From Cenarchaeum sp. (GTDB lineage: Archaea; Thermoproteota; Nitrososphaeria; Nitrososphaerales; Nitrosopumilaceae), in assembly GCA_965242695.1 (NCBI GenBank), contig CBDESU010000002.1, forward strand, positions 160,001 through 224,000: a stretch of 64,000 bases of DNA. The letters run 5' to 3'. The position numbers were made by a program, and so were the translations under genes. Under the pieces are notes generated by a model. It was given only the letters and a program-made list of their open reading frames with translations, made no database searches and had not been told where the DNA came from. Each line of letters begins with the position of its first letter. Positions within the stretch are counted from its first letter, which is position 1. Shown here in pieces: positions 4,135 through 52,278 of the stretch.

Positions 4135-4207
4135 AGCCCGATAGTGTAGCGGTCAAGCACGGGGGCCTTTGAAGCCCTTGGCCCCAGTTCGAATCTGGGT
4201 CGGGCTA
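4135..4207 (+). tRNA. tRNA-Gln (anticodon TTG)
   Basis: AGCCCGA/TCGGGCT acceptor stem, D-arm TAGTGTAGCGGTCAAGCAC, anticodon loop CT-TTG-AA, T-loop GTTCGAATC; no encoded CCA. Confidence 0.95.
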
Positions 4208-18130: not shown

Positions 18131-18175
18131 AAGCACAGAATTAGGGCCAATGGAAGGCCGTCCGCGCATCGCGAA

Positions 18176-30385: not shown

Positions 30386-30619
30386 GGCGGGCGCTAGAAG
30401 GGGGAGGGGCACGACTCGTAGCGCTGTACGCAGGAGGATGTGCAGGCGCCGCCACGCCTGGCTAGCGCCGCCGCTAGAGCCGGCCGGTTCGCCGTGTCCC
30501 CATTCCAATCGCGCACGCATCACCCCCAAAGCGTGCGCAGGCTCTCGGCTGACGACGGATGCGCCAAGTACGCAGCTGCGCCACGCCGTTATTATGGGAC
30601 GGCTTTTGGCCGCCCGCGC

Positions 30620-31432
30620 ATGAGGCTCTGCGCAGTAATGGACTACGGCCCGATTGTCCCCGACATGGAGGTGACGTCATGCCCAAGGCGCATGGCCGCC
30701 AACGACGGGCGCGACTATGTAGTAAAAATGTACGGCGACGACAGCCTCAAGTCGCGCTTCAACGAGTATGTTGCGACAAGGATTGCGCAGGAGGCGGGGT
30801 TGTCCGTGGCCGAGCCCGCCGTAGTCTATATTGACGCTGAATTCATAGGGCGGACATTGGGCCTCCAGAAAACTAAGACGCGGCCAGGCCCACACTTTGC
30901 AACACTGTTCTACGACAAGGCGTACGACATGCGCGGCAGGGTGCATCCCAGACCTAGACAACCACAGATCGCAAACCTAGAGGAAGTCCCAGCCTTTGTG
31001 GCATTTGACGTCTTTGCGCACAGCACTGACCGCAACGACGGCAACACCCTCTTGGTTCCGTCAAACGGCGGGCGCGCCGGCTACCGCTACCTGCTCATAG
31101 ACCACGGGCACTGCTTTGGCGGGCCGGGATGGGACTCGGACACCGCGGCCAGCCTTCCGTACAAGACTGCAGACATGCCGTGGCAAACAGACGCAATATC
31201 CGGCGAATCCTCATTTCGCGGCCCTGTCGACAAGATGACGCAGACTAGTCGGGCAGACATGGACAGGGCCAAGGACAGAATGCCCAGCGAGTGGGGCATA
31301 CCCGACGACGAGTATGACATCCTAAAAACCGCAATGTCGTCAAGAGATCCGAAGAAAATAATGGACGCCACAAGGTCCGACAAGAGGCACTTTCCAGGGT
31401 GGGCGAGCGGCCTAGACAGGTGGAGTTCCTAA
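30620..31432 (+). CDS. HipA-like (HipA_2) kinase
   Basis: YVVK, FNEYVATRIA, FDVFAHSTDRNDGNTLL and LIDHGHCF are PI3K/HipA-like kinase motifs. Confidence 0.85.
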   Translation: MRLCAVMDYGPIVPDMEVTSCPRRMAANDGRDYVVKMYGDDSLKSRFNEYVATRIAQEAGLSVAEPAVVYIDAEFIGRTLGLQKTKTRPGPHFATLFYDKAYDMRGRVHPRPRQPQIANLEEVPAFVAFDVFAHSTDRNDGNTLLVPSNGGRAGYRYLLIDHGHCFGGPGWDSDTAASLPYKTADMPWQTDAISGESSFRGPVDKMTQTSRADMDRAKDRMPSEWGIPDDEYDILKTAMSSRDPKKIMDATRSDKRHFPGWASGLDRWSS

Positions 31433-32253
31433 TGGGCGCGTACAGCTACTCCGTCTCTAGGTTCGTGCCGGACCCGATAAAAAACGAGCCTGTCAACATC
31501 GGGGTGATAGTTGTCGATCCGGAGACGGGCAAGGCGGCTCACAGATTTCTGCATAGCCTGCGCAGCCTAAGCCCGCGATGCCCCGGGGCGGATCTAAAAT
31601 CCCTCGAGGGGATCGTAAATTCCATCCAAGTCACAGATATGCCAGGCGGCGTCGACGACCTCGAGGATCTTGCGCAGGGGTACACCAACCTTTTGCAATT
31701 CACACCGCCGCGCGCGGTGGTCGCTTCGTCCCTAGAAGACTCGCTACAGCGCGCGTTCGAAACATACATAGGCAGGGACGTGGTGCGGGCCGGATCAGGC
31801 CGCGTAAAAAGCCCAAAGGAAATCCTGCTCATGGAAATCGACGCTGCGCTGTCAAACGACGGTAATTTTATGGGAGGAGTGGTGGCGAAGCGGCATGCGT
31901 TTGCCGGTCGGCGTGGCCGCTTTGTCCCGGATCGCAGCGTCTCCTCCCGCGACTGGATATTTGCGCTACATGCGATTTCGTTTAACGTGAAGGCAGGGGC
32001 GAAAATTCAGTCGGTGCTAAATGATGCCAAGGCGTTTGCAGTCGATTTTGAAGATGCAAGGGAGAAAAATGAAGGGCTGGAGTGCACCGTAGTGATGGAA
32101 CCGGCGGCGGCCGGCGAGTGCGAGGGGGCAGAGTCATGCGCCCAAGCAATCGGTCACCTAAAAGACAGAGACTGCAAGGTAATCCGGCGGAACGGCATAA
32201 AACCGTGCGCCCAACAACTGGGGCGGCGCCTGGGGGCATCCGGCCTGCCATAA
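31432..32253 (+). CDS. DUF3037 protein (partner of the HipA-like kinase)
   Basis: YSYSVSRFVPDPIKNEPVNIGVIV and LQFTPPR motifs; TAATG translational coupling to the kinase. Confidence 0.85.
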   Translation: MGAYSYSVSRFVPDPIKNEPVNIGVIVVDPETGKAAHRFLHSLRSLSPRCPGADLKSLEGIVNSIQVTDMPGGVDDLEDLAQGYTNLLQFTPPRAVVASSLEDSLQRAFETYIGRDVVRAGSGRVKSPKEILLMEIDAALSNDGNFMGGVVAKRHAFAGRRGRFVPDRSVSSRDWIFALHAISFNVKAGAKIQSVLNDAKAFAVDFEDAREKNEGLECTVVMEPAAAGECEGAESCAQAIGHLKDRDCKVIRRNGIKPCAQQLGRRLGASGLP

Positions 32254-35200: not shown

Positions 35201-36274
35201 TCATCGGCCGGCCCCGGCCCCCGCCGCCGCACCGCCGGCGCCCCGGCCGCGCATCCACGAGATCACCTCGTCCAGGCTCTCGCCGAGGGACACCTCGGCC
35301 TCGAACCCGAGGACGCGCCTGGCCTTTCCCACGTCCGGCACGCGCCGCTGCACGTCGTGCTCGTACGGCGGGTCGGATACGAGCCTGAGCGGCCGCCCCG
35401 GGTTGATCCTCTCCCACACCATCCGGGCAAGCTCGGATACCGTCGTCCCCCTCGCCGACGACAGGTTGAAGTCTTCGTTTGCGGCATCGGGCGACTCCAT
35501 GGCCATCCGCAGCCCCCTCGCCACGTCCCTCCCGTTCGTGTAGTGCCGCACCTGCGCGCCCGACCCGAGGATGCGCAGGGGGTCCTGGCCGGCCAGGCAC
35601 TTTGCGGCCAGGTCGGGCACCACGTGCGACATGAGGAGCCTGACGTTGCCCGACATCACCTCTTCCTCGCCGAGCGCCCTGTCCTCGCCGACTCCGACGC
35701 AGTTGAACGGCCTCACTATCGTGTATGGCAGGCCGTACTGCTCGCGCGCGCCGTACGCAAAGTACTCGGACGCGAGCTTTTGAAAGCCGTACGTCGACGA
35801 CGGCGGCGGGCACGCGGCCTCGTGCCCCTCGGGCGTCGGCCATACGGACGCATTCTCAAAGACCATGCTCGAGCTGACGACGACGATGCGGCGGAGGCGT
35901 CCCCTCGAGTGCCGGTCCACCGCGATATCGAACGTGTTGGCCAGTATGCGTTCGTTGGCTGCGAGCAGGTCGTACGCCCGCCTGTGAAAGTACGATATGC
36001 CCCCGATCATGGCCGCGCCGGCCACGATGTAGTCGAACTCGGTGCCGGCCTCCTCCCCCTCTACCAGGCTGCGGCGGAACGCCTCGCCGGCGCAGTCGGC
36101 CCTGACAAGGCGGAACGACGGGTGCGAGTCGTGCGGGCGCACGAGCGGGCCGTACTTTGAGTAGTCGTCGACGCCGACGACCGAGTACCCGCGGCCGAGC
36201 AGCTCGGCGCACACGTACGAGCCGATGAACCCCTGCGATCCGGTGACGAGCACCGTCCCCCTCTCCGCCGCCAA
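35201..36274 (-). CDS. NAD-dependent nucleotide-sugar epimerase/dehydratase
   Basis: VLVTGSQGFIG, YGFQK (YxxxK), IVRPFNCVG and DVQRRVPD motifs. Confidence 0.92.
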   Translation of the reverse strand: MAAERGTVLVTGSQGFIGSYVCAELLGRGYSVVGVDDYSKYGPLVRPHDSHPSFRLVRADCAGEAFRRSLVEGEEAGTEFDYIVAGAAMIGGISYFHRRAYDLLAANERILANTFDIAVDRHSRGRLRRIVVVSSSMVFENASVWPTPEGHEAACPPPSSTYGFQKLASEYFAYGAREQYGLPYTIVRPFNCVGVGEDRALGEEEVMSGNVRLLMSHVVPDLAAKCLAGQDPLRILGSGAQVRHYTNGRDVARGLRMAMESPDAANEDFNLSSARGTTVSELARMVWERINPGRPLRLVSDPPYEHDVQRRVPDVGKARRVLGFEAEVSLGESLDEVISWMRGRGAGGAAAGAGAGR

Positions 36275-36392
36275 CGGAGCGGCGGGCGCGGCCGAGCGTA
36301 ATAAGCGGTCGGGAGGGGGGCGCAGGAGGGGGGGGCGGAGGCTCCCGCATGCCGCGCAAAACCCTCAAAAGCCGCCCCGGTGCGGCCCCTGC

Positions 36393-36923
36393 ATGAAATG
36401 GAAGATGAGGTGCCTCGTGTGCGGCGGGCAGTTCGCCGTCGATGCCATAGAGGCGCACCTGCCCGAGTGCCTAGAGAAGGCAGGTGCAAAGGGAGGCCCC
36501 CGGTGCAAGGAGGAAACGTTCGTCGTGACGGCCAAGTGGAAGGGCCAGCGCCTGATAGTCAGGGTGGCCGCCTCCGCCAGCCTGTACGACCTGGAGCATC
36601 TCGTCCGGTACGAGTGGTTCCACTGGGACCACCTGAGCGCCTTTGTCATCGAGGGCGCCGAGTACGCGTGGAACGAGGATGATGCGAGCATGCGCGGCGT
36701 CCCGACGATGGAGGAGACGAAGGTCGGCGACGTGTTGCGCGGCGTGTCCCGCTTCAAGTACGAGTACGACTTTGGATCCACCAAGCGGGTGTACCTCGCG
36801 TCGAGCCCCGTGCCGGCCGGCGCCGCCGCAATGAAGGAAGAGATCGACGTGGTCGCCGAGCGCGTCGAGGAGGAAAAGGAGCCTGCCGCAGAGCGGAAGG
36901 ACATGGCCTTGGAGGATTTTTAG
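36393..36923 (+). CDS. pRiA4b ORF3-like (IS1096 passenger TnpR-like) protein with an N-terminal CxxC...H...C finger
   Basis: VAASASLYDLEHLV, DHLSAF and FKYEYDFGS family motifs. Confidence 0.75.
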   Translation: MKWKMRCLVCGGQFAVDAIEAHLPECLEKAGAKGGPRCKEETFVVTAKWKGQRLIVRVAASASLYDLEHLVRYEWFHWDHLSAFVIEGAEYAWNEDDASMRGVPTMEETKVGDVLRGVSRFKYEYDFGSTKRVYLASSPVPAGAAAMKEEIDVVAERVEEEKEPAAERKDMALEDF

Positions 36924-37282: not shown

Positions 37283-38413
37283 ATGACAGACGGTGACAGT
37301 CTCCCAAGAGTGCAAAGCAAAAAAGAGTTTCATGAATGCCTTGAAAGCTGGATATCTCCACCCAAGCGCGAAAACGACGAAGAGTTGGGAGGACGCCTCG
37401 GGGAGCTCAAGTCATACGTGCTAGAGACAAATGGCGGTTGTAAAAAAGAAGGAACGGAGGGCGGCATGGCGTGGTCTGTGACTGACACAGGGGTGAACAA
37501 GTTGAAAATCTTACAGGTGAGATGCGACGGGGTTGTATACGAAGCATTTATGGACACGTCCGATAGTCGCTTCTACGTCCTACATACTAACGAGAGATCG
37601 GAAATCGCCACCAAAATTGTGGATATGTTTACAGACGGTTGGTCACACTCGTTTGACAGGACATGGATGTACCACGGTATACTTAAAGCAATAGCTAAAA
37701 AAACCGGAAATTCGTTCAAGGGATTCGGTGCCAGGTATTCTGATGAACTCCGCCGCAAAGCAAACGAGGACGGTAGCACATCAGAGATTGAAGACATAAA
37801 CCTGACTATCAATGGGTCAATGGCCCACAAAATAGAACAAATTATGCATAACGCAGAAGGCCTTGAAGACACAATTGCATACAACAAGCTTCGCATCATG
37901 CGTGGCGAAGGCACCAACCCCGACGAATATGCTTCTGACGATGTCAGAAATACGGGGTATTTTGCTATGAAACATGGGAAATCTGTACTCGATCACCTAG
38001 ATCTAGTGAGGATATCAAAAGATGTGTACTCAAACACGGTCATCGGTATTGAAGGCCATAGACTAGGAACACGGCAGGTCGACGGTAGGCACATTATAAA
38101 AGGCAAGACTCTAGATTTCACTTTCAAGAAGCCCATAGCAGACTTAAGGCTATTCATAAGCAGAGTGTTCGGATCTAGCAGACCTTTCAATCTCTGGGGG
38201 CTCGAGTCCGAGCTGGAAGATGGCTATTTTGACGTCCTAGGAATCGACCTGCATACGGGCGATTCCATGAACTTTGAGATTGCGAAGGATTTCATGCGAG
38301 TCTACCTCTCGGAAGGAAGCTGTGGTAACTCGGTGCTTCGCCTGCTCACCAACCTGCAGATGTACTACGGTCGAGGGGTAATCTGTGAACGAGTTGATCA
38401 ACTTGTACGCTAA
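37283..38413 (+). CDS. Hypothetical protein, family 'A' of the repeated two-gene module (divergent copy, low GC)
   Basis: 376 aa. The C-terminal GIDLHTGDSMNFEI...MRVYL...SVLRLLTNL aligns by eye with LVDHMDGSSFEIW...ITIVP...SLSRLIAHI of 44690-45823. Confidence 0.75.
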   Translation: MTDGDSLPRVQSKKEFHECLESWISPPKRENDEELGGRLGELKSYVLETNGGCKKEGTEGGMAWSVTDTGVNKLKILQVRCDGVVYEAFMDTSDSRFYVLHTNERSEIATKIVDMFTDGWSHSFDRTWMYHGILKAIAKKTGNSFKGFGARYSDELRRKANEDGSTSEIEDINLTINGSMAHKIEQIMHNAEGLEDTIAYNKLRIMRGEGTNPDEYASDDVRNTGYFAMKHGKSVLDHLDLVRISKDVYSNTVIGIEGHRLGTRQVDGRHIIKGKTLDFTFKKPIADLRLFISRVFGSSRPFNLWGLESELEDGYFDVLGIDLHTGDSMNFEIAKDFMRVYLSEGSCGNSVLRLLTNLQMYYGRGVICERVDQLVR

Positions 38414-39220
38414 TAAGCACACAAGACTTGTGAATAAATTTATCGGGCTGTGCGCCGGAGCCGTGGGCTGGCCTTTGCCGCTTGGACCATAGGATATGAG
38501 GTGCAATTGATCGAAGTAGTCGTAATTTTAGACTCGGCCCGTCGAGTCGTCCCCGATCTGATCGCCTGCTCGCAAACCCTCGATCATGCTATTGTGGCAG
38601 AGTGAAAGGGCGGGTCGTCTCTAGATATTGCGCAGGACGAAAAGTACAAAGAGATGACTGCCGCAAACATAACCAGCGTGGTGACAGTTGATAATGGGAT
38701 CAATTGACGCATATCGTGGCATATGTGGTCGATTCTGACAAATACAGTCAGCTTTACGCCAACACGTCGTCTCCTTTATAGTATTCGGCGACGATTGTGT
38801 AGGGGGCGGGGAGATTTTAAATTGGAAAAGCTTAACAACGCTCTGCAAAAAGTGGAATTTCATGGTACGCGACTATAGTCCACCAAATACTGCTCTTTTT
38901 CACACGACGATGCAACTGGCGTGATCGTCTCGTATGCGATTAATGCGGTAATGCAGTGTATCAAAAAACATCCCAAATTTAAATTTGATCCAAGCGATGA
39001 GGATAGCATTACGGCAATACTAAAATGAACGCATGCATGTTATGACCTGATTTCAAGCAAACATCAAAGAGTCCTGCGGAGGAAAATCAGAGAAATGTTA
39101 AAGCAAATAAAGCAAGCCAATCCATATTTCACAAGGCAGATTACCAAGATACGGATGAAAGGGCACAGTATTGCCGTCATTCGTGAGCTTAATATAATAT
39201 GTAAAAGAATAATCAGCGAC
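38403..39220 (+). pseudogene. PD-(D/E)xK nuclease pseudogene ('B' partner); 3' end approximate
   Basis: TTG start overlaps the end of A: YANKHTRLVNKFIGLC, frameshift, then IGYEVQLIE...VVPDLIACS...HAIVAE*KGG...QDEKY (TGA at 38603), followed by further frameshifts and stops; very AT-rich. Confidence 0.7.
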
Positions 39221-39499
39221 TATGTAGTCCAACAACGCCTAGATTGACACGACCAAGCAAGGTCGTCCATGTCGACTACGTCGCAGGGCTGAGCCCTCTT
39301 TTGCAGGACAGCGGCGGGGGCAGAGATGTCGCGGCCGGGCCGCCCCGCTCGCCGGCGGCGACGGGGGCAGCTGGGGCAGGGCGCGGCGCCGGGCATCCCG
39401 GGGGCGCCGCCCGGGCCCGCGTCGGCGCGGCAGGGCCCGCCGCCCCGCAGTCCCGCATCTTCGAAAAGCCGCAGGACTGTCCTTGCCCTGACTGCGACG

Positions 39500-39770
39500 G
39501 GGGCCCGCATCCCGCCCTCCCCCTTGTAGTCCCGGCGCTCGAACGGCAGGCGCCGCCGGCGCCACCGCTCGACCGGGCCCTTAAAGTCGACGACCCTTGT
39601 GCCCTCTACGAGCCGCTCGCCCTCGAGCCTTCGCAGCAGCTTGTAGGTCCGCGCGTGCCCGACGCCCACCAGCCTGGCCGCGCACTGCCTTGAAGGGTCT
39701 CCGCGCGGCTAGTTGAGCGGCGCCCCGGTGATCCCGCCCTTGAAGCAGGTTCAGTACTCGGTCTTCACGG
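39500..39770 (-). pseudogene. Remnant of a wHTH protein (possibly AbiEi-antitoxin-like N-terminus)
   Basis: AARLVGVGHARTYKLLRRLEGERLVEGTRVVD...W is HTH-like; interrupted upstream and degenerate downstream. Confidence 0.4.
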
Positions 39771-40051
39771 CAAGCCACGCGCGCGGCACTACAAAAAATA
39801 TGATGTTTTTTGCCCTGTGGCGGCCTAAAAACGACATATGTGCTTTTGAGGGGTGTGGGAAAAGGCGGCAGCCGAGCAGCCGCAGGCATCAGATCACGCG
39901 CGCGGGCAGGAGCAGACGAGGAAAGCGATGGCATTCGCATCCCTCTGTGCCGTGCGTTGCGGGCGCGCGCCTAGCCCATGCGGCCTCCGCTCGGCGCCGG
40001 ATCGTCCTCCTGCTCAGGGTTTAATTGGCACGCATGCGGCGGCGCGCCGTC

Positions 40052-40855
40052 ATGCCGCCCGATCCGCCCCCCGAGCTGCCCGAAGAGGGCGACATCGTAA
40101 TCGGCACCGTCGTCGAGATCATCGACCACGGCGCGTACGTCTCGCTCGACGAGTTCGACGGCATGCGCGGCTTCCTGCACATTGGCGAGATAGCCCCAGG
40201 CTGGATACGGTCCATACGGCGCCACCTCAAGGACGGCGAGAAAAAGGTCCTCCGCGTAAAGCGCGTCGACCCGCGCAGGTCCGACGTGTTCCTGTCGCTC
40301 AAGCAGGTCTCTGCCGAGCAGCGCAAGATGAAGATGCACGAGGCCAAAAAGTACGAAAAGGGTCGGACCCTGCTCGACAGCGTCCGCGAGCGCGCCGGCC
40401 TCACCGACGAGGAGACGGCAAGGATAGAGGCGGCCCTCGACGCCAAGTTCAACACCGTCCACGACGCCTTCCTGGAGATAGCCCGCGCCGGCGGCCCCGA
40501 CGGGCTCCTCAAGGGGCTTCGCCTGCCCCCAAAGGCCGCAAAGGCCATAGCCGAGGTCAGCTCCAAGATACGCCTCCCGTCCGTCGAGATCAGGGGGATA
40601 ATGGAGATTACGAGCGCCAGGCCCGACGGCGTAGAGGTGATCAAAAAGGCCCTGTCCGGCGCGCTCGGCATGCCCGGCGTCGAGGTCACGTACCTCGGGG
40701 CCCCAAAGTACCGCATCGCCGTGACCGCAAAGGACTTCAAGTCGGCCGAGAGGGAGCTAAAGCCGATCGTCGACGGCGTCCAGCGCGCCGTCGAGAAGAA
40801 AAAGGGCTCGTTCGCGTTCTCGCGCGAAGAGTCCAGGAAGACCAGGGAGGGCTGA
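40052..40855 (+). CDS. eif2a: Archaeal translation initiation factor 2 alpha subunit
   Basis: LPEEGDIVIGTV, GAYVSLDEF, FLHIGEIAPGWI (S1 domain), DGVEVIKKAL and YLGAPKYRI motifs. Confidence 0.96.
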   Translation: MPPDPPPELPEEGDIVIGTVVEIIDHGAYVSLDEFDGMRGFLHIGEIAPGWIRSIRRHLKDGEKKVLRVKRVDPRRSDVFLSLKQVSAEQRKMKMHEAKKYEKGRTLLDSVRERAGLTDEETARIEAALDAKFNTVHDAFLEIARAGGPDGLLKGLRLPPKAAKAIAEVSSKIRLPSVEIRGIMEITSARPDGVEVIKKALSGALGMPGVEVTYLGAPKYRIAVTAKDFKSAERELKPIVDGVQRAVEKKKGSFAFSREESRKTREG

Positions 40856-40860
40856 CAAAA

Positions 40861-41121
40861 CTGGCAAAGCCGCTGATGCGCAGGTGCCCCGCATGCGGCC
40901 GCTACACGCTGAAGCGCGAGTGCGGTGAGTGCGGTGAGGATACGGCCGGCGCCCACCCCGCCAGGTACTCGCCCGACGACAAGTACGCAAGGTACAGGCT
41001 AGCCGAGAGGTACGCCGAGGCCGGCGGGCAGGGGCCGGGCGAAGAGGCGGGCCCTGGGCCCGCCGCAGGCGAAGAGGCCAAGGAGGGCGCGGCGGGCGCC
41101 CCGGCGGTGCCCGGGGCGTGA
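40861..41121 (+). CDS. nop10: H/ACA RNP protein Nop10
   Basis: MRRCPACGRYTLK...CGECG...AHPARYSPDDKYARYR; conserved position after aIF2a. Start could be ATG at 40876. Confidence 0.93.
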   Translation: MAKPLMRRCPACGRYTLKRECGECGEDTAGAHPARYSPDDKYARYRLAERYAEAGGQGPGEEAGPGPAAGEEAKEGAAGAPAVPGA

Positions 41122-42134
41122 GCGCGCACCTGCCGGCCGACCCGCACATGCTGTACGCGGCCGCCGCGGCCGCGGCCGCCGCATTCGGCGTAGTGTACCT
41201 GGCGACCCCGCCCCTGATCAAATGGCTCGAGGCGCGCGGCATGGGCGTGCCGGACATACACAAGCCCGGCCGCCCCACGGTCGTCCGGCCCGGCGGCATA
41301 TCCATAGCGGCCGGGCTGCTAGCCGGCATGGCCGCGCTGTACGCCGCAGCCCCGTCGAACGCGGTAGCCGCAGTGGCGGCCGTGGCGGCCGCCGCCTTTG
41401 CCGTCGGCATCGTCGACGACCTGCGCGTCATGGGCGGCTGGTTCAAGCCCGTCTGCCTTGCGGCATGCTCGGCGCCCATACTCGCCCTCGGCGCGTACGA
41501 CACCTCGATGGCGTTCCCGCCGTTTGGCGACGTGCGCATACCCATCCTGTACCTGGCCGTCGTGCCCGTGATGGTCTCGACCATGGGCAACACGGCCAAC
41601 TCGATAGACGTCGGCAATGGCATACTGAGCGGGGCGATGGCCATGGCCGGGGCGGCCCTGGCGGCCGCGCTGGCCATGGACGGGAGCCTCGCCATGGCCG
41701 GCGCGGCCGCTGCCCTGTCTGCCGCCTCGCTTGCCTTCTACAGGTTCCACCGCCTGCCGAGCCGCATATTCCCGGGCGACTCTGGGGCCCTCGTCCTCGG
41801 CGCCTCGTACGGCGCGATCGCCGTCGCAGGCGGCGCCGAGATCGTCGCCGTGATCGCCGTCCTGCCGGCCGTCTTCAACTCGTTCCTGTACCTGGCAAGC
41901 GTGAGGCGCATCGTCGAGCACAGGCAGCTAGAGGGCGGCAGCGGCGTCGACATACTGCCGGACTGCAGGCTGGCGGCATCGCCGCGGCCGAACGCGCCCC
42001 TCTCGCTCGTGCGGCTCCTCGTCTCGGACGGCCCGCTGACCGAGGGGCAGATGTGCGCGGCCATACTGCGGCTCGTCGCGTTCACGAGCTGCCTGGCCGT
42101 GGCGACGGCCGCCGCGGGGGCGCTGGTGCAGTGA
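41118..42134 (+). CDS. MraY/GPT-family UDP-GlcNAc:dolichyl-phosphate GlcNAc-1-phosphotransferase (AglH-like)
   Basis: DIHK, GIVDD, NTANSIDVGNG and IFPGDSG motifs; multiple TM helices. Confidence 0.88.
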   Translation: MSAHLPADPHMLYAAAAAAAAAFGVVYLATPPLIKWLEARGMGVPDIHKPGRPTVVRPGGISIAAGLLAGMAALYAAAPSNAVAAVAAVAAAAFAVGIVDDLRVMGGWFKPVCLAACSAPILALGAYDTSMAFPPFGDVRIPILYLAVVPVMVSTMGNTANSIDVGNGILSGAMAMAGAALAAALAMDGSLAMAGAAAALSAASLAFYRFHRLPSRIFPGDSGALVLGASYGAIAVAGGAEIVAVIAVLPAVFNSFLYLASVRRIVEHRQLEGGSGVDILPDCRLAASPRPNAPLSLVRLLVSDGPLTEGQMCAAILRLVAFTSCLAVATAAAGALVQ

Positions 42135-42400
42135 CGGCCCGCGCCGCGACGCGGCTGTACGCGTTCATGGCCGTCATGTGGGGCATGCTGCTCGGCGGCG
42201 GCGGGCTGTTCGTCCTCGTCCTCGGCCCCCTCTCCGTGTCGGGGCTCGGGCAGTACGACGCGGCGGCCTCGTCGGCCCTCAAGGCTGCGGTCGCCGCGGG
42301 GTTTGTCGCCGCGTGGGTGATCGCGCTCGCAAGGGCGAACAGCTGGATGTTCCGGCGCGGGGAGAATGTAAGGGAAGAGGACACGAAGGGGAGGGCGTAA
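42131..42400 (+). CDS. Small two-TM membrane protein
   Basis: GTGA overlap with the upstream gene; two hydrophobic helices. Confidence 0.65.
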   Translation: MTARAATRLYAFMAVMWGMLLGGGGLFVLVLGPLSVSGLGQYDAAASSALKAAVAAGFVAAWVIALARANSWMFRRGENVREEDTKGRA

Positions 42401-42947
42401 AGACATACAGCCCGGCGGGCGCCTGCGCCCCCAGTGCGCCCGCGAGCCGCGGTCGGGACTCCCGTTACATTCGCTGCATGCAGTGAGGGGGCACAAAGGG
42501 CTGCACTTGGCGGCAGCGCCGGGCGTCGGCTCTGCACGGCGGCGCCCCTCGACGCCTCGGGGACAAGCATCCGTACGCCGCTGCAACCAAAGGCCATGTC
42601 GTCTAGCTTCTAGAATCAGATTTTCCATGTGTTGATCGCGAAGGGCATGCATGCGACTACCAAGGAACCGAAGGTTGGGAATCACACGTCTAATCCAGTA
42701 GAAATACGGCGAAAGCCCACCGAAGAGACGGTGCAGCTCCGCCTGCCATCCGCCGGCCGTCCGGCGCCACGGCGCGATCGGCGGCGCAGTCCGCAACGCG
42801 CAGCCCGGCGGCGCGATCGCCCCAAGTGGACACAAAGTACCCGACTGTGAGTGCAAGGCCGTGGGGGCAAGGCACCGCGGGCGGTGCGGCGAACCGCCTC
42901 AATAACCTGCGACCAAGTGCTATATCGCCCACCGGATCGCTGCGGCC

Positions 42948-44087
42948 ATGGCAAGGCAGTCCATGGCGGGGGCAGAGCGGCGCCACAGTGCAGGAGCGTT
43001 GCCCCCGTACCTTCAGCAGCTTGGAGGCTGGGACCAGTGCGCAGAGGCCATAGAGGACATGCTCGGAGGCGATCCGAACAGCCAGATCAGCATGCTCCTG
43101 CTCGTATCGGATGAGGACGTCATCAAGGCAATCCAGAGAGCGGCGCCCAAGATAGGGATCGCGAGGAGTGCCGGCGCCGCGCCGAAGACGGCGGTTTCGC
43201 TGTCGGTCAGAGGGAGCTCGAAGGCCAGGCCGGGACGCCTCCTCGTGCTGCAAACCGGCGTCCCCATGGTCTACCTGGCAATCACGCACGAGAGGCCCGC
43301 CTTCGTCCGCGCCATGCAGTCCGTCCTCGAAGAGGTGTGCCCACGCGCCTTCGTCCCGCGCTTCAGCTCAGGCGAGATGCGGTCCGTGCTAGAGCTGCTC
43401 GAGTCAGAGACCGGCCTGATGCTGACGGCGATGCGCATCACGTCCCACAGCCGGGCCGGCAAAAAGGCGACATGCCGGCGAAGCGAGAAAAAAGTGAGGG
43501 CGGGCGGCGGCCGCAGCGGGTCCGAAATCATCCACGTCGGCGTTCCCTACGGGGGCGCGATCGAGTCGTCGCTAGAAAACGGCCAGTGGATCGGCGATGC
43601 CCAGTTCATCCTCTTGGAGGGCGGCGACGTTCGCTTGGAGGGGTACTTTTCTCGGGGAGGCCTGTTCAAGTTCCGCCATTCGTTCCTAGTTTTCAAGAGG
43701 CACGTCCTGCCGCACATACTCGACATGGCCAGGAGAAGGTTCGAGCTCTACTCAAACCGCTCAAGGGAGGACAACGGCGGCGACGACGCCTCGCCGCTAG
43801 TCATAAAGCTCCAGACGGACACGTTCGACGACCCCGAGCAGAGCCGCAGGTTCATCGAGGCCGTACAGGGAATGAAGCACGCCTCGGGCAGCGTCTACCG
43901 CGCCAGCCCCTACGTGAACATGTCGGTCGTCGACCTCGAGGACGGGTCTGCGTTCAAGATATGGATCATGTCGCCGGACGAGATCACGATCGTCCCCCAG
44001 GCGAGGGCCACCCAGGCGTCGTTTTCCCGACTGATCAGCCACATCTTTGAAAGGTTCCAAGAGGGCGACGTCCGTGAGTACGAGTAG
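42948..44087 (+). CDS. Hypothetical protein, family 'A' (GC-rich tandem copy 1)
   Basis: 379 aa, colinear with and highly similar to 44690-45823 (e.g. LESETGL, LENGQWI, LEGYxSRGGLFKFRHSFL, YSNRSREDN, HIFExFQEGDV). Confidence 0.85.
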   Translation: MARQSMAGAERRHSAGALPPYLQQLGGWDQCAEAIEDMLGGDPNSQISMLLLVSDEDVIKAIQRAAPKIGIARSAGAAPKTAVSLSVRGSSKARPGRLLVLQTGVPMVYLAITHERPAFVRAMQSVLEEVCPRAFVPRFSSGEMRSVLELLESETGLMLTAMRITSHSRAGKKATCRRSEKKVRAGGGRSGSEIIHVGVPYGGAIESSLENGQWIGDAQFILLEGGDVRLEGYFSRGGLFKFRHSFLVFKRHVLPHILDMARRRFELYSNRSREDNGGDDASPLVIKLQTDTFDDPEQSRRFIEAVQGMKHASGSVYRASPYVNMSVVDLEDGSAFKIWIMSPDEITIVPQARATQASFSRLISHIFERFQEGDVREYE

Positions 44088-44093
44088 CGCGCG

Positions 44094-44565
44094 GCAGAGG
44101 ATGCGATCCTGGACGACATAGACAGCTACACGCAGACCCAGGAATCCATGTGCGCGTTCGCTCGGGTGCTGGAAAAGCACTACGGCGCAGAGTCGAGAAT
44201 CGCCCCCGCGATGCGCCCGGGCCGCCGCGGCGGGAGCCTGGCGGGCGGCGCCGTCACGCCCGACATACTGTCACAGGGAAGGGGCATCGATCTTGTCATC
44301 GAAGTCAAGCGATCGCTGCCAGGCGGCGGGGCCGGCAGGGCCGCCGCCCTTGGCCAGCTTGGAAGGTACGACGACGATCTTGACGGCTGGAGGCGCAGTC
44401 CCCCGACGCACGACATAGTGCCGATGACGCACATGTCCAAGAGCGCCCAGTGGGCAGACTTTCTCAAGGACGCGCTGAAAAGGAAAAAGGCCTCGTTCAA
44501 CAGGAAGGTCTCCATCGTCGAATGCGTGCGCGACTCGGAGCGCGCCACCTACATGATCTTGAAGG
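44094..44565 (+). pseudogene. Truncated PD-(D/E)xK nuclease ('B' copy 1)
   Basis: AEDAILDDIDSY...VTPDILSQGRGIDLVIEVKRSL...QLGRYDDD. Similarity to 45804-46796 ends at RDSERATY, and the start is frameshifted. Confidence 0.8.
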
Positions 44566-44689
44566 GCAGCATGCGGCGGCAACGCCTAGCGCCGGCTCCG
44601 TGCGGCGCGCCCCTCTCGGCGCCCCAGGCACAAGCGTCCGTGCGACGCCAACGGCCAAGGGTTATAACATCTACCGTGCCGAAGTGGGC

Positions 44690-45823
44690 ATGGCAAGGCA
44701 ATCCATGACGACGGAGGATCAACCCGGCTCGGAGGTGCAGCCGCGATACCTGCGGTCGCTAGGAGGCCCAGGGCAGTGTGCCAGAGCTTTGGAAGACATG
44801 CTCAACGGCGATTCCAGCAGCCAGATCAGTATATTCCTGCTCGCAGCGGACGGGGACATCGTCAAGACGATTCAGAGGGCTGGACCCGGAGTAAAAATCG
44901 AGAAAGAAGGCAGGGCGGGACAGAGCACAGCGGTCGCCCTGAGGATAGAAGGGAGTTCCGAAGACAGGTCGGGTCGGCTGCTTGTCGTGCAGACCGACAT
45001 TCCCCAGATTTACCTTGCAGTCACCCATGGAAAGCCCCTCTTCGTCAACACCCTCCCATCGGTACTTGAAAAAATGCATCCATATGCCTATGTGCCGCAC
45101 TTCACCTCCAGTGAAATACTGGGCATGCTTGGGATGCTCGAATCAGAGACCGGACTCACGCTGACGACAAAGCGGATCACTGGACACAGACGAATTGGCA
45201 AAAAAATGACACATGTGAGAAAGTCGAAAAAGCTGAAGTCGAGTGCAGACCACAGAGAATCCGCGATCACGTATACCGGCGTCCCCTACAGAGAGTCGAT
45301 CAGATTGGCGCTAGAGAATGGCCAGTGGATCGACAAGGCACAATTTGTCCTGGCGGAGGGCAGCGACGTGCTCCTAGAGGGATACCTTTCGCGCGGCGGG
45401 CTGTTCAAATTCCGGCATTCGTTCCTGGCTTTCAAGGAGCGTGTTCTGCCGCACGTCCTCAGTCTGGCCATGAACAAGTTCAACCTCTATTCAAATCGCT
45501 CAAGAGAGGATAACGATGGCGAAGTTTCGCCGCTAGTCATAAAGCTCGAAACAGACACCTTCGATGACCGCAAACAGAACCGCAGGTTTATCGATGCCAT
45601 CCAGAGCATGAAATACACTTCAGCCTGCACCTACCATGCAAATCCCTACATAAACATGTCTCTCGTCGACCACATGGACGGATCGTCGTTCGAGATATGG
45701 GTGATGTCATCAGACAAAATCACGATCGTGCCTCAGCTGAGGACAACCCAGGCATCGCTATCTCGCCTGATTGCACACATTTTTGAAAAGTTTCAAGAGG
45801 GGGATGTTGTCGAGTACAAATGA
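44690..45823 (+). CDS. Hypothetical protein, family 'A' (lower-GC tandem copy 2)
   Basis: ATG about 25 bp after GTTATAA; starts MARQSM like copy 1; 377 aa. Confidence 0.88.
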   Translation: MARQSMTTEDQPGSEVQPRYLRSLGGPGQCARALEDMLNGDSSSQISIFLLAADGDIVKTIQRAGPGVKIEKEGRAGQSTAVALRIEGSSEDRSGRLLVVQTDIPQIYLAVTHGKPLFVNTLPSVLEKMHPYAYVPHFTSSEILGMLGMLESETGLTLTTKRITGHRRIGKKMTHVRKSKKLKSSADHRESAITYTGVPYRESIRLALENGQWIDKAQFVLAEGSDVLLEGYLSRGGLFKFRHSFLAFKERVLPHVLSLAMNKFNLYSNRSREDNDGEVSPLVIKLETDTFDDRKQNRRFIDAIQSMKYTSACTYHANPYINMSLVDHMDGSSFEIWVMSSDKITIVPQLRTTQASLSRLIAHIFEKFQEGDVVEYK

Positions 45824-46796
45824 AAGCCGGACGGCCGAAGACAGGACGCTAGACAGCATAGACAACTACAAGACGACCCTAGGAGCCATGTGTGCGCTTG
45901 CGCACGTACTAGAAAGGCACTACGGGGCAGAATCACGCATTGCGCCCGTAATGCACCCCAGCCCCCGTAACAGGATCCAGGCGACCGACCCCGTTACACC
46001 AGACATGGTATCGGAAGGAAAGGATGTCGATCTCGTTGTCGAAGTCAAGCGGTCGCTGCCAAATAACAAAAGCGGCCAAATCGACGCTCTCAACCAGATT
46101 AGAAAATACGATGACGATTTCGCCGGCTGGAAGCGCAATACTACAGCACACGATATAATGTTGATGGTGCACACATCCAAGAGCTCCCGGTGGGTCGTCT
46201 TTCTTGGCAAGAAACAAAGCGAAAAAAAGGCCTCGTTTGATAGAAAAGTAACAATTGTAGAGTACATGCGAAGTTCTGAGCGCGAAACCTATTTTCAATT
46301 GAAGAGGGTATGGGGCAAGACAAGCAACGCCGTGCTAAATCGGCACCTATACAATGGCATAATAGTAAAATCCGAACAGATCATAAAAATGATCAGCGTT
46401 GCCAAGTTTTGCGACAGCAAGCCAGATATAGCATATACCATGAGCATCCTCTGGAATTATATTTTTTCATCACTGATCGCTAAAGATAAACATTTGAGCA
46501 CCAAGGGGCGGAAAGCGGTAGATCATATGTTTGATCTGAAAGAAATAATGGACAAACTCAGAGATGCAGAAGGCCCGTTCTCCTATCCGCCAAAGCAAGC
46601 GTGGATTAGCGAAGCACTAAACGCGTTTGTCATATTGAAAATGGCTGAAAGGCACTCTGGAGATCGCTTTTTGGTGCACTACAAGTCCATCCGCGGCGAC
46701 TTGGTGGAGTTTTTTGTTAAAAAGCTTGCAAAATCCGCCGTGCGCAAGAGGCAGGATCGCAATAAGCAGGATCGGATGGGAGATATTCGAGACTAA
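45804..46796 (+). CDS. PD-(D/E)xK nuclease-like protein 'B', intact, with a possible C-terminal wHTH
   Basis: VTPDMV...DLVVEVKRS...NQIRKY gives the PD / ExK / QxxxY pattern; the C-terminus (LKEIMDKL...WISEALNAFVILKMAE) is wHTH-like; overlaps A by 20 bp. Confidence 0.8.
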   Translation: MLSSTNESRTAEDRTLDSIDNYKTTLGAMCALAHVLERHYGAESRIAPVMHPSPRNRIQATDPVTPDMVSEGKDVDLVVEVKRSLPNNKSGQIDALNQIRKYDDDFAGWKRNTTAHDIMLMVHTSKSSRWVVFLGKKQSEKKASFDRKVTIVEYMRSSERETYFQLKRVWGKTSNAVLNRHLYNGIIVKSEQIIKMISVAKFCDSKPDIAYTMSILWNYIFSSLIAKDKHLSTKGRKAVDHMFDLKEIMDKLRDAEGPFSYPPKQAWISEALNAFVILKMAERHSGDRFLVHYKSIRGDLVEFFVKKLAKSAVRKRQDRNKQDRMGDIRD

Positions 46797-48068: not shown

Positions 48069-48620
48069 CTAGCACGCGATCAACTCCTCGCACGACGGGA
48101 GGCAGTCCGCAAAATGAACCCTACTGGCCCATCCAAGCCCCGTCACCATGTCGCGCATGCGGGAGCTCGCATCCCTGTCCCTGCTTGCGAATATGATTTG
48201 ACGGTCGGACCATGCGCGGGTGCGCCCTACGGCCGACAAGAGGGCAAAGAACGGCCTGTCGAAGCGGTCGCCCTTCCATCGGCCTGCATCCGCGTCGTCC
48301 GTTTTTACCGGCTGCACCGCGAAGAGAAGCCGTCGGGGGCGGCTGACTGCCCTAGTAATCTTTATCCTTCGCAAGCTGTGCCAGTAGGAGCTGGGGGCGG
48401 CCAGGCCGGCCCGGCCGAGTCGGGCCCCATAGTCGCGGTACACCCCCGCCGAGACGAACACGGTGATGGATCTGCCGCGCGGGGGCGGGTTGATCCTGCC
48501 CACGACGCCGGCGGCCCACTCGAACATAGCGTCATGCAGTGTCTTCTCGGGGCGGTCGGACAGGACATCAAGGACGATGCCCGTGTCCATGATCAGCCCC
48601 AAGCTGTGGCTAGGGAGCAT
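48069..48620 (-). CDS. Putative PIN-domain protein
   Basis: LIMDTGIVLD (first Asp), DRFDRPFFAL and IIFASRD match the PIN acidic-residue layout; overlaps the ATPase gene. Confidence 0.55.
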   Translation of the reverse strand: MLPSHSLGLIMDTGIVLDVLSDRPEKTLHDAMFEWAAGVVGRINPPPRGRSITVFVSAGVYRDYGARLGRAGLAAPSSYWHSLRRIKITRAVSRPRRLLFAVQPVKTDDADAGRWKGDRFDRPFFALLSAVGRTRAWSDRQIIFASRDRDASSRMRDMVTGLGWASRVHFADCLPSCEELIAC

Positions 48621-49698
48621 TTGGCACCACACTCCCGTACGCCAAGGCGTCGATCGCCTCGTCGAACAGCTCTTGCTCAGCCTCGCCGGCCCCGTTGACG
48701 CGTATTCTTTCGACGTCCGTGTACGATCCCCGCCTGCGCCGAAAGTAGTACATGCCAAGGTCCTCGGGCCCCACGGCGCCGCTGCCGACCAGCCCCAAAA
48801 CCGCATGCGCCACAAAGGGGCTGTGCGTCGTGACCACCATGTTGATGCCGCGCGCCGATGCGGCCTTGACCATTTCGCCGACGAGCTTTATCTGCCTTAT
48901 CGGCTCTATATGCTCCTCGGGATCCTCGACGACGAGCATCCCGGCCGGATCGAGGTGGTTCAGGGCCACCATGATTGGGAATGCGGACGCGACGCCAGAT
49001 GCGGCCGAGCCGATCCCGGCCTCGAAGCCGAGCGGGTCGGCGTAGGCATTCGCCCGGATGCCGGGCGCGCCGGGCGCCTTGATCGAGCCTCGAAACACCC
49101 TCGAGAACATCTCCTGCGCCCGCCCGTCGAGCCCGCCAGAGAGCGCCTCGAGTGCAATGCGGCAGAACTGCGCGAGGTGCCCGGGCATCCGGTGGCAGAC
49201 ATCGAGCGGCGCGGGGGCTTCGAGGCGCAGGGCCGAACTTGAGGGGCCGCCCCCTGCCGGCACCAGTGCGAGGAGCGACTGGATCATCGCCGCCCTCCCG
49301 GCGGGGACGTACACGCTGCGCTCGCCGGCGCCGTCCGCCCCGGCCTCGGCCGGCGCCGGCGGCACGGGCCGCATCCCGCCCTGCGGTCCGCCCCGTCCAA
49401 AGTCGAGCACCGCGCCGCCTCCGGAGCCGGCGCCCACCAGCTCGATGCGGCCCGACGGCATCGAGTGTGTGACCGCATCGGATCCCTCTATTCCGGCGCC
49501 CCGGAGCACGGCGCCGGCGAGCGCGCCGGCGCCGGCGCCGTCGGGGAGGAGTCCGAGCCGGCGGGCCGCGTGCAGGAGCCGCGCCGCGATGGACTTGCCC
49601 GAGCAGTTCGGGCCGACGAACACGGTCAGCCTGTGATCCCCGATCGCCGCGCGCCTTATCGGCCCTATGTTTTCAAGCCGGGCCTCGCTGAACATCAT
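48610..49698 (-). CDS. AAA_15/AAA_21 (AbiEii/OLD-like) ABC-type ATPase
   Basis: LENIGPI, TVFVGPNCSGKS, VYVPAGR, SAASG, VVEDPEEHIEP and VTTHSPF motifs. Confidence 0.88.
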   Translation of the reverse strand: MMFSEARLENIGPIRRAAIGDHRLTVFVGPNCSGKSIAARLLHAARRLGLLPDGAGAGALAGAVLRGAGIEGSDAVTHSMPSGRIELVGAGSGGGAVLDFGRGGPQGGMRPVPPAPAEAGADGAGERSVYVPAGRAAMIQSLLALVPAGGGPSSSALRLEAPAPLDVCHRMPGHLAQFCRIALEALSGGLDGRAQEMFSRVFRGSIKAPGAPGIRANAYADPLGFEAGIGSAASGVASAFPIMVALNHLDPAGMLVVEDPEEHIEPIRQIKLVGEMVKAASARGINMVVTTHSPFVAHAVLGLVGSGAVGPEDLGMYYFRRRRGSYTDVERIRVNGAGEAEQELFDEAIDALAYGSVVPNAP

Positions 49699-50451
49699 GC
49701 CCGCCGCGCGCCCTGCGCCGCCCATATTAGGCGTTTCCATGGAGGCTGCCGAGCGCGTTGCATGCGCCGCCCGCCGCCGCGGCCCTGCGTCGCGCCGCAT
49801 TCCAGCCGCGCCCCTCCGCGGCAGCGCATCGCGGGCGGACGGCCCGCGGCGCGCCGCCGCGCCGTCCCGCCATGCCGATCACGATCCCCGCCGCACATGC
49901 ATCGCCCGCCGCCACAGACGCCGAGCACACGCAGGACAATCTCCGCCCTAGCCGGCTGCGCGCCAAGGCCCTGCTTGACAAGTGCGAGATCGAGGCAGTG
50001 CGGCGGCGGGCCTGCCTCTTCCGCCAGCGGACCGCGGCTGGCGTCCGTGGGAGGGCCGCCCGCGCGCCAGCGGCGCCTCTGCAAACCCCGCATCACACCG
50101 GCAGGCGGCCTTCGGCCGCCGCGTTCCGCAGCAACCCGCGCAGGCTTGGCCGCAGGCCTGCGCCCGTCCCAGATCCCCCAATCCCGATGCAGGGAGCCCG
50201 CGCAGGCGGGCTGCAGCCCCGCGCCGCAGGCGCCAAGAGGGGGCGAAGGGCGGCCTCGTAGCGGCCCGTTGCAACCAATATAGCCCAGTGCATGCGTGCG
50301 GCGACATGGAGGCGGGCGCAATTCCACCGCATGCCGCAGGCATGCACGCCCGCGCGCTCGCACTGTGCCGCGCCGTCGCCCCCGGCCCGCAGGCACGGGC
50401 GCACCCCGCCCACTTCCCGCTTAGGCCCGCGCGCGCCGGAGGCCCGCGCCG

Positions 50452-52278
50452 TTGACCCTCCTCATGGCCTCGCAGGCGGACGACGGCGCCGCGGCCGTCT
50501 CCGACCGCAAGGAAGGCCGCCCCGACAAGGAGGTCACAAAATGCCACATGGTCGATAGCGGCCGGTTCTACATCGCCCTTGCCGGCGACGGGAGGGCCGC
50601 AAGAGGGCGGCTCCGGAGAGTCGCGGAGGGCAGGACGGTCCAGGCCACCGTCATAGAAAAAAGGATATGTGATCTTGCCGCGTCCATCTACGACCAAGGC
50701 AGGCGCATGTCAAAGTCGATGGGCGCAAGGCGTGCGGGTTCGGCCTTGTGGTCTTCGGGCGGGGCGGGGCAGAGCTGCACGAGCGATGCACTGCCGAGAT
50801 GGGCACGCTGGAGATACTCTTCCGCATCGGCCCGGCAGCCGGGCAGGCCGGCACAGGCAAGGAATGGGGGCAGGCGCATGGATGACCGCATCGCGGACCG
50901 CATCAAGGCCCTGGCCGGCGAAAAGGATCCGCGCTACTTTGCAGAGAACTCCCTTGGCGACCTGCTCGGGGAGGCCGGAATCGGGCGGGATGCGGCCGAT
51001 ATCGGCGAGGCGACCCGAATGCTTGCCGAATGCGACGTGTATGCGTTTGTCGGGGCCGTATCGAGCGGCCTGCGGGAGACGGCCACCGACTGCGGCGAGT
51101 TCGCCAGGCTGGTCAGCTGCATAGCCGACAAGGTCCGGTACGACCTGGCGCAGGGCCCCGTCGTTCGTGCGCTCATCAAGATCGGCAAGGCCGATCCGCG
51201 CACCGGCGCGGCCCTTGCGTCGCGCCTCGTCGGACTCGGCGATGCGGACTATGCGGCCTTTCTGGCCGGCGGGGCCCGGGCGGGGGCCCCGCGCGAGTGC
51301 GACGATCTCGCCGAATCCCTCCTGTCGTCCGACGATCCCCAGCACGTTGCGGCAGGCCTGCGCCTGCTGCGCGTGGCCCGCGCGGAGCACGGAGAGCCGG
51401 GGGCGGATGCCGTGCTCGACGCGGTCCAGGCGGCGCTCCGCCGCGCCGGCGGCGACGAGCGCGTCGACTGCGAAGCCATCGATTCCCTCCTAGTCGCCTA
51501 CGGCGAGAGCCCGGAAAGGACGGGCCCCATGATCGAGGACCTGGCGCTGAGGCGGCCGGCCTGCCGGCCCGTCCTGACGAGCCGCATCGCCGGCCGGTCG
51601 CCGTTTGGCGGCGACGTGGGCCTGCGCTACCTCGACATATGCGCCAGCGGCCTTGACGAGAAGAGCGCGGACGGCGACGTTCACGACGTCTGCCGCGCCC
51701 TTGCCGGGCTGGCCGGCAGGCAGCCCGAGGGGGTCGCCAGGTCAATCCTCGCCATGGCGGGGAGCGGGGCGTACGCCGACAGGCACGGCGGCCGAGTGCT
51801 GGAGGAGCTGGGCCGCGCGCACGCGTCGGCCGCGTCCGGGGCCATTCTGAAGGTGCTGAGCGGGCCTCACGGGCCGGCGGTGAGCCGCCACCTGCCGTCC
51901 ATGATGCGGCGCCTGGGCACGCACGCGGACATGCGGGAGGCGGCTGGGCCGTTTCTTGGCGCGCTCGACTCGGTGCCCGCGGCTGCACGCCACTGCCTGA
52001 CGGCCCTCTATGCGCTGGCAGTGTGCAACCATCTTGGAAGGCGGGGCGGCGGCGCGGCGGCGGCAATTCTTGGCCGCCTGCGGGATCATGCCGCCAACGC
52101 AGGAGTCCCAGTGCAGGCACGGTACGCATCCGCGGTGGATCCCTGCGCAGAGCTGTGCAGCCTGATCGACGACCTGCGGCGCCCAGGCGCTGCGGCAAGG
52201 AGTGACATGGAGGCTGCCACAGGGTACGTCTTCTTCAAGCTACCATGCGTAAGCACTTCCCGAGCAAGAGCGGCATAG
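50452..52278 (+). CDS. Hypothetical protein: N-terminal Ntn-hydrolase-like fragment in frame with an alpha-helical solenoid protein (probable separate start at 50878)
   Basis: MTLLMASQADDGAAAVSDRK...TK...YIALAGD resembles a proteasome-beta start. The sequence from MDDRIADRIK (50878) on is Leu/Ala-rich and helical. Confidence 0.5.
   Translation: MTLLMASQADDGAAAVSDRKEGRPDKEVTKCHMVDSGRFYIALAGDGRAARGRLRRVAEGRTVQATVIEKRICDLAASIYDQGRRMSKSMGARRAGSALWSSGGAGQSCTSDALPRWARWRYSSASARQPGRPAQARNGGRRMDDRIADRIKALAGEKDPRYFAENSLGDLLGEAGIGRDAADIGEATRMLAECDVYAFVGAVSSGLRETATDCGEFARLVSCIADKVRYDLAQGPVVRALIKIGKADPRTGAALASRLVGLGDADYAAFLAGGARAGAPRECDDLAESLLSSDDPQHVAAGLRLLRVARAEHGEPGADAVLDAVQAALRRAGGDERVDCEAIDSLLVAYGESPERTGPMIEDLALRRPACRPVLTSRIAGRSPFGGDVGLRYLDICASGLDEKSADGDVHDVCRALAGLAGRQPEGVARSILAMAGSGAYADRHGGRVLEELGRAHASAASGAILKVLSGPHGPAVSRHLPSMMRRLGTHADMREAAGPFLGALDSVPAAARHCLTALYALAVCNHLGRRGGGAAAAILGRLRDHAANAGVPVQARYASAVDPCAELCSLIDDLRRPGAAARSDMEAATGYVFFKLPCVSTSRARAA

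Follow-up and report, generated by a model that had tools for sequence, protein, structure and literature searches.

Introduction

GAPS4, compared here by description, is the closest validated analogue that we found for the two-gene module discussed in this report. As published (PMC13748975), GAPS4 joins a PD-(D/E)xK subunit to a second protein that, by prediction, forms a ring around DNA, the two assembling into a 2:2 complex of 160.8 kDa. DNA damage triggers the system, after which DNA is degraded and the cell dies; protection needs both genes, and horizontal spread has been wide. A second point of reference is the phage-exclusion pair RexA/RexB: PMC11077077 assigns RexA, RdgC, Iml3, and Chl4 to one DNA-binding fold with non-specific binding, and describes RexA as a phage-exclusion sensor and the DNA-binding component of the exclusion pair. 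Here we describe an uncharacterised, widely but patchily distributed pair, consisting of a protein of predicted RdgC fold (A) and a nuclease-motif protein (B), which is present in several copies in a 64-kb stretch of DNA (C2:160001-224000; hereafter the window) from a genome of 3.89 Mb in two contigs. The host is an archaeon, as indicated by an aIF2-alpha gene at 40025-40855, and the guanine-plus-cytosine content (GC) of the window is 67%.

By the published account of GAPS4 (PMC13748975), the two systems are alike in having two genes, one for a PD-(D/E)xK subunit and the other for a partner that is non-enzymatic in GAPS4, and in mass, at about 80 kDa for each GAPS4 a+b pair and 80.1 kDa for A plus B (42.2 and 37.9 kDa). 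They differ in gene order, since the nuclease gene stands first in GAPS4 and second here, and in motif, the non-canonical HGxD-SxK of GAPS4a contrasting with PD...ExK...QxxxY in B. Furthermore, the search for GAPS4 homologues that is described in that paper covered bacterial genomes only, whereas the present module is also archaeal. With RexA/RexB and RdgC the likeness lies in A, whose predicted models have the RdgC / RexA / Iml3-Chl4 fold class, although A is longer (about 375 amino acids in three modules, versus 279 residues in the RexA chain and around 300 in RdgC chains). The partners are also unlike: RexB is a membrane protein, whereas B is soluble and carries nuclease motifs (22 of 26 loci).

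An earlier note, made from the letters of the window, had proposed A and B as a candidate new defence or toxin system, and our searches recovered no system already described. For 15 module proteins (five from the window and ten further members), PADLOC (version 2.0.0, dated 2023) returned only a weak Csx23 match in the window set (expect value, E = 0.028, over 22 residues), and otherwise no match to the models of Rst_3HP or other PADLOC systems. An NCBIfam scan of the five window proteins gave nothing relevant, and their matches across Pfam (a library without PF25924), NCBIfam, and PADLOC were sub-threshold chance matches to PolyA_pol_arg_C, AcrIIA4, Csx23, and EppA. A search of the literature library used here returned no description of an RdgC-, CENP-L-, or TBP-like protein paired with a nuclease in defence, and no relevant mention of PF25924, MJECL33, MJECL32, AF_0896, PF27326, or PF27341.

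A and B as a conserved unit

Three intact A genes lie on the forward strand of the window: A1 at 37283-38413 (376 amino acids; protein P0001), A2 at 42948-44087 (379 amino acids; P0002), and A3 at 44690-45823 (377 amino acids; P0003). Each is followed by a gene with nuclease motifs, and all three frames are open just as the earlier note had read them. The partner genes, also on the forward strand, are in three different states, again in agreement with that note: B1 (38382-39244) is decayed, B2 (44088-44567) is truncated, and B3 (45804-46796, or from an alternative start at 45771) is intact and encodes 329-341 amino acids. B3 overlaps the end of A3 by approximately 20 nt.

The linkage of A to B is not peculiar to this genome. 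Among 26 loci from species-representative genomes of archaea and many bacterial phyla (Nitrosopumilaceae, Micrarchaeota, Planctomycetota, Chloroflexota, Acidobacteriota, Bacteroidota, Nitrospirota, Omnitrophota, Verrucomicrobiota, Bacillota, and others), the next same-strand gene after A matched the B profile in 22, so that A homologues keep a nuclease neighbour. Three of the four exceptions (L012, L016, and L018) stop at a contig edge, and the fourth (L031) is without B; at one locus (L035), A and B are both fragmented. The genes are closely packed, with a gap of zero or less in 19 of the 22 loci and a 4-nt overlap in nine of them. The same layout is found on five plasmids, namely those of Methanocaldococcus jannaschii, Haloarcula marismortui (pHMA33), Halobacterium hubeiense, Lysinibacillus, and Metabacillus; in the pHMA33 partner gene, the PD/ExK motif is not obvious by eye. 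Over 26 intact pairs, pairwise identities of A and of B were strongly correlated (r = 0.94, a value reached by none of 2000 label permutations). Since linked genes have a common history, this correlation shows joint inheritance without partner swapping and not co-adaptation.

A and B are also predicted to bind each other, as the earlier note had supposed. Modelled as a 1:1 complex in three runs, the pair gave ipSAE interface scores of 0.85, 0.81, and 0.85, against 0.09 for the best control; the runs share at least 83% of their contacts, and the predicted local distance difference test score (pLDDT) of the partner was at least 82. In the model, the third module of A (residues 272-353) contacts B at residues 189-235, 250-256, and 293-301, and the predicted interface includes invariant positions on both sides (S324, D327, D330, G331, S332, P348, and Q349 of A; D203 and P206 of B). 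This third module is the most conserved part of A: its conservation is 0.52, versus 0.28 and 0.35 for the other modules, and its median identity to the A3 protein is 0.42, versus 0.15 for module 1 and 0.22 for module 2.

Nuclease motifs and the state of the B genes

The residues P65, D66, K81, Q97, D102, W108, D203, and P206 are invariant in an alignment of 26 B homologues, drawn from archaea and ten or more bacterial phyla, and E79, Y101, W216, and W266 are conserved at 90% or more. Read from the alignment, the conserved residues correspond to the PD...ExK...QxxxY pattern of the PD-(D/E)xK type, of which the QxxxY element is typical of RecB/Cas4-type nucleases. In B3, this PD-(D/E)xK-type core is followed by the predicted A-docking region.

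The B2 frame begins straight after the A2 stop codon and in the same frame, its earliest start being an internal Met at 44148. Only the nuclease core is left: B2 is 56% identical to B3 over 139 amino acids, homology ends at about residue 179, and the whole C-terminal half is gone, while the PD/ExK/Q..Y residues are still legible. B1 consists of four stop-interrupted pieces at 38382-38489, 38438-38602, 38879-39025, and 39029-39244, located by a search with the partner-gene profile, of which they cover positions 5-29, 35-72, 169-214, and 217-286. Judged by these profile matches, the AT-rich "spacer" after A1 is the remnant of B1.

Predicted fold of A

Searches with predicted models place A in the RdgC / RexA / CENP-L fold class, in keeping with an earlier guess at an RdgC or CENP-N/L fold. 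For the A3 model, the top Foldseek matches in the PDB were Iml3/CENP-L (4je3_A, E = 8e-5) and next RdgC (2owl and 2owy, E ~1e-4), each with a Foldseek probability of 1.00; human CENP-L, CENP-N, and TBP stood lower in the list. Among viral models, recombination-associated or RdgC proteins took six of the top ten places, and phage RdgC proteins headed the list. The A1 model gave matches with weaker E-values to CENP-L (probability 0.85-0.91), lambda RexA (0.47), and TBP (0.41). At the level of sequence, no A protein matched Pfam RdgC at E up to 1, and A does not belong to the RdgC family by this measure.

Two subtypes of one system

The two A/B arrangements in the window differ in their relation to named families. 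PF25924, which is named MJECL33 in the Atlas, is carried by all 36 database homologues of A1. In a tblastn comparison, 97% of A1 aligned with a gene on the large plasmid of M. jannaschii (E = 2e-26), and both A1 (E = 2.6e-39) and the plasmid gene match phrog_22469. By these matches, A1 belongs to PF25924. In M. jannaschii, the next, overlapping gene shows HT(K/R)L...TPDV...ExK...Q..KY, as do the A1-type partners in the present genome. PF25924 (MJECL33) and PF27326 (MJECL32) are adjacent uncharacterised genes of that plasmid, both now Pfam entries; A1 and the decayed gene next to it belong to these two families or are closely related to them. The tandem pair is their sister: tandem A forms a family of 723 cluster representatives at 50% identity, and none of its 45 homologues examined carries PF25924 or any other Pfam domain. 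The earlier note could assign A to no named family, which no longer holds for A1.

That note had also called the 37.3-kb pair remotely similar to the tandem pair. For the B proteins this is correct, and their homology across the subtypes is demonstrated by profile comparison: the B profile (26 sequences) aligned with a set of eight MJECL32-type sequences, which includes MJECL32 and the B1 genes of this genome, at an hhalign probability of 94.5% (E = 8e-8, 235 columns; 96.8% in global mode), with PD falling on PD, ExK on ExK, and QxxxY on QxxxY. In the Atlas, one of the nearest clusters to B has PF27326 on 30% of its members (score 0.94). A bridging member was observed outside the window, in the pair at C2:236706-238713; it links the subtypes through its B protein (C2:236706-237677), which matches the B profile at 4.6e-40 and also the MJECL32-type profile, at 1.7e-5.

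For the A proteins, BLASTP found no similarity between A1 and A3 (E = 0.77), and hhalign comparison of A with MJECL33, co-linear end to end, was not significant (0.4%, 0.6%, and 7.5% in local mode; 60.4% in global mode). The C-terminal D-x-x-x-G...FEI...LxRL segments that the earlier note had seen in both subtypes are paired in that co-linear alignment. Furthermore, the AlphaFold2 models of A3 (pLDDT 86.1) and A1 (pLDDT 81.7) have helices and strands that follow one another in nearly the same order through three modules, and both match the same fold class, and the nearest language-model clusters to tandem A in the Atlas are PF25924 clusters (score 0.96, with 225 of 256 features in common). Homology of A across the subtypes is thus probable rather than proven, and we conclude that the two pairs represent distantly related forms of a single two-gene system.

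Copy number, decay, and distribution

A2-B2 and A3-B3 form a tandem arrangement on the forward strand at 42910-46796 that repeats about every 1740 nt: unit 1 covers 42910-44651, and unit 2 starts at 44652. Three direct repeats between the units (D1, D2, and D6; 42910-42968 / 44652-44710, 43784-44081 / 45520-45817, and 44092-44321 / 45832-46061) are spaced 1736-1742 nt apart at 71-75% identity; the first of them sets the start position of A3. The A2 and A3 proteins are 59% identical. The earlier description of the loci as low-GC inserts applies to the blocks at 37.0-39.5 kb (GC 0.45-0.59) and 45.0-47.0 kb (GC 0.44-0.53), which lie between flanks of 0.65-0.77, but only weakly to the unit at 42.9-44.6 kb, where GC is slightly low (0.62-0.65). 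GC at third codon positions (GC3) follows the same division, at 0.63 in A3 and 0.57 in B3 versus 0.84, near the host level, in A2. Because GC3 in unit 2 is far below that of A2, A3-B3 looks like a later arrival next to an older, ameliorated copy.

Although the earlier note was right about three A genes with B neighbours, its count of three modules was too low. A fourth A-family copy, frameshifted and with no adjoining B gene, lies on the reverse strand at 60610-61676, where profile positions 103-166 and 190-365 are covered in two frames and stop codons can be seen; a spurious 429-amino-acid open reading frame (ORF) on the forward strand overlaps it. The genome as a whole contains 18 loci, 14 of the A/B type and four of the MJECL33/32 type. 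The A-type gene reads through in one frame at 16 of these and the B-type gene at eight, so that B is broken or missing at ten. A is intact with a defective B at eight loci (B broken at five and absent at three), both genes are defective at two, and no locus has an intact B with a broken A. If loci are independent and target sizes similar, eight of eight B-first losses would arise at equal odds with a chance of about 0.004, or about 0.03 for the five loci with B remnants only. This preferential loss of B fits both a defence and a toxin-antidote reading. The six intact A/B pairs are 16-77% identical in protein sequence and represent four or more lineages with 16-30% identity between them.

Among relatives, the module is distributed patchily. 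Of the 31 related genomes searched, three, all of the same genus, matched the A profile, and the other 28 gave no match; the three are large genomes of 3.9, 3.7, and 3.2 Mb, with 18, 7, and 5 matches. Within that genus, the A family was seen only in these large genomes (G000, G002, and G004), and two genomes of about 2 Mb (G001 and G003) had none. The A1 profile was found in three of 301 genomes of the phylum and not in the other 298. A tblastn search of phage records with A1 gave no match.

Gene neighbourhoods

Genes directly upstream of the pair vary from locus to locus and include restriction-modification, helicase, NACHT, SMC-like, and metabolic genes. Seven of ten immediate upstream same-strand genes encode conflict-system or DNA-helicase domains (two type IIG/Eco57I-like methylase-nucleases, REase_MTES_1575 with a helicase, a Schlafen AlbA_2 protein, a UvrD/PIF1-like helicase, a NACHT protein, and an SMC/AAA_13-like ATPase), two are metabolic, and one had no match. 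Among 103 neighbour proteins scanned there were restriction-modification components, Schlafen domains, and transposases, along with many housekeeping families. The M. jannaschii plasmid pair adjoins an OLD-type ATP-dependent endonuclease, an EVE-domain gene, and VapBC.

Two further points concern the composition of these neighbourhoods. A fixed third gene was considered as a component and ruled out, as the immediate upstream gene differs between loci. Three of the five plasmid loci (L009, M. jannaschii; L010, pHMA33; L045, Lysinibacillus) also have a DEAD/DEAH-box helicase gene no more than a few kb from the pair, perhaps by chance or through a loose association.

Discussion

Our data suggest that A and B probably, though far from securely, constitute a two-subunit, DNA-sensing nuclease complex that acts in genome conflict as a defence. 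Several features together resemble the signature of a conflict system, and we count them toward the defence reading: the patchy spread, the copies of low GC, the defence and transposase genes nearby, the 18 diverged loci, and the decay of B ahead of A. We weigh them together with the linkage and joint inheritance of the two genes, the predicted complex, the fold class of A, the conserved residues of B, and the GAPS4 precedent. The proposed function is anti-virus or anti-plasmid, of the suicide or DNA-degrading kind. A would be a three-module alpha/beta protein whose variable modules 1 and 2 probably bind or sense DNA and whose conserved module 3 would dock on the middle of B, while B would comprise an N-terminal PD-(D/E)xK core with QxxxY, then the putative A-docking region, and then a helical C-terminal portion. 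If the analogy with GAPS4 and RexA holds, abnormal invader DNA, such as ends, breaks, or replication intermediates, would be recognised by A, which would then position or release B, the putative nuclease, for DNA cutting.

Several observations weigh against this interpretation. The nuclease assignment of B rests on motifs: a single one of 26 family members matched a Pfam family (AHJR-like, E = 0.018, below the family cut-off), and profile searches of PDB sequences found no match to B. For A, Foldseek gave template-modelling scores of 0.22-0.32 with root-mean-square deviations of 7-13 Å, and because these scores are low the assignment extends no further than fold class. Of 80 solved complexes, 58 reached the ipSAE mark, as did two of 110 mismatched pairs, but this calibration holds only roughly for the A:B prediction, which used custom unpaired alignments. 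Gene neighbourhoods are mixed, with housekeeping genes also standing beside the pair, and the association with conflict genes is given without an enrichment statistic. Scans of viral contigs found the A type at one locus and the A1 type at none, although such pattern-dependent scans are weak evidence of absence. A defence or addiction function is itself something that we infer, and an intact A beside a dead B suits an antidote at least as well as a sensor.

This last point leads to an unlikely but serious alternative, in which the two genes make up a toxin-antitoxin or addiction module: B would be a DNA-cutting toxin and A a large protein antidote acting by direct binding, and the module would persist through post-segregational killing, with any defence secondary. 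The position of A upstream of B and the overlap of the genes recall type II pairs, and binding between the two is predicted; on plasmids, the pair is found next to VapBC and MazF genes, and one genome holds many diverged copies. The decay pattern would also suit an antidote, as B was lost first at eight loci and A at none, and A2 has stayed intact long enough to reach a GC3 of 0.84 while its B is dead. However, at about 375 amino acids, with three modules and a DNA-binding fold class, A is far above typical antitoxin size, and the predicted interface is on the middle of B and not clearly over D66/E79/K81. The GAPS4 authors likewise argue against toxin-antitoxin action of the analogous subunits (PMC13748975).

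Quite improbable, in our assessment, is a selfish mobile nuclease element of a homing-type or restriction-like kind, which would spread by cutting empty sites, with A as its DNA-targeting subunit. Such an element could be expected from the multiple, patchy, low-GC copies inserted between core genes, from the transposase or integrase genes sometimes close by, and from the two modules in tandem, but the unit itself contains no integrase or transposase, flanking terminal repeats are missing from the window copies, insertion contexts vary by locus, and the 16-77% identity among the six intact pairs speaks against a recent burst. A housekeeping accessory of DNA repair or recombination, with an RdgC-like regulator and a resolvase-like nuclease, is very improbable: RdgC modulates recombination according to PMC11077077 and B has a weak match to the AHJR-like resolvase-type family, but searches gave no A match in 28 of the 31 related genomes and no A1 match in 298 of 301 phylum genomes, B is broken or missing at 10 of 18 loci, and the intact copies are foreign in base composition. 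The remaining probability belongs to explanations not listed here.

If A and B form a working defence or addiction system, a widespread uncharacterised module (the 723 A representatives) would be added to the known set, and one that is present in archaea, where tested systems of this kind are few. A defensive DNA-sensing complex of A and B would also be a further case of an RdgC-fold DNA binder with an effector, after RexA and, with its ring-forming partner, GAPS4, which suggests that DNA-clamp sensing may recur in immunity. The 18 diverged loci, at which the putative nuclease is lost first, offer a natural experiment on cost and turnover in an expanded archaeal genome. Furthermore, the likeness of A to Iml3/CENP-L points to a specific archaeal protein that could be compared with those of the kinetochore. 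A bolder proposal, which we put forward as improbable, is that MJECL33/MJECL32 represents an ancient bacterial-archaeal immune module in which an RdgC-fold clamp would sense aberrant or invading DNA and license a docked Cas4/RecB-like nuclease, resembling GAPS4 but of separate origin, and that its archaeal members are the nearest prokaryotic relatives of the CENP-L/CENP-N (Iml3/Chl4) fold. Were this true, an origin of CENP-L/CENP-N from archaeal conflict systems would become testable.

Other features of the window

A transposon was considered as the carrier of the window copies and rejected: no terminal repeats surround them, and the sole tRNA gene of the window is distant, at 4135-4207. Directly upstream of the low-GC A1 insert lies a PRiA4_ORF3-like gene (plasmid pRiA4b ORF-3; 36225-36923, forward strand). 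On the other side of the tandem copies, 1.8 kb downstream of B3, is an AAA_21 (AbiEii-type) ATPase gene at 48610-49800 on the reverse strand; the 608-amino-acid ORF beside it (50452-52278) had no Pfam match.

Three other regions of the window stand out by low GC3. At 30440-32253 on the forward strand, overlapping genes encode a HipA_2-like kinase (E = 6e-12) and a DUF3037 protein (E = 2e-8) with GC3 of 0.71 and 0.66, below their neighbours, and this pair resembles another small insert of a toxin or defence type. A protein with HD and HD_assoc_2 domains is encoded at 24746-26182 on the reverse strand (GC3 0.62), amid cobalamin-synthesis genes. Finally, three ORFs of 172, 330, and 326 amino acids at 16618-19156, with GC3 of 0.61-0.70 and no Pfam match, may be another foreign block.

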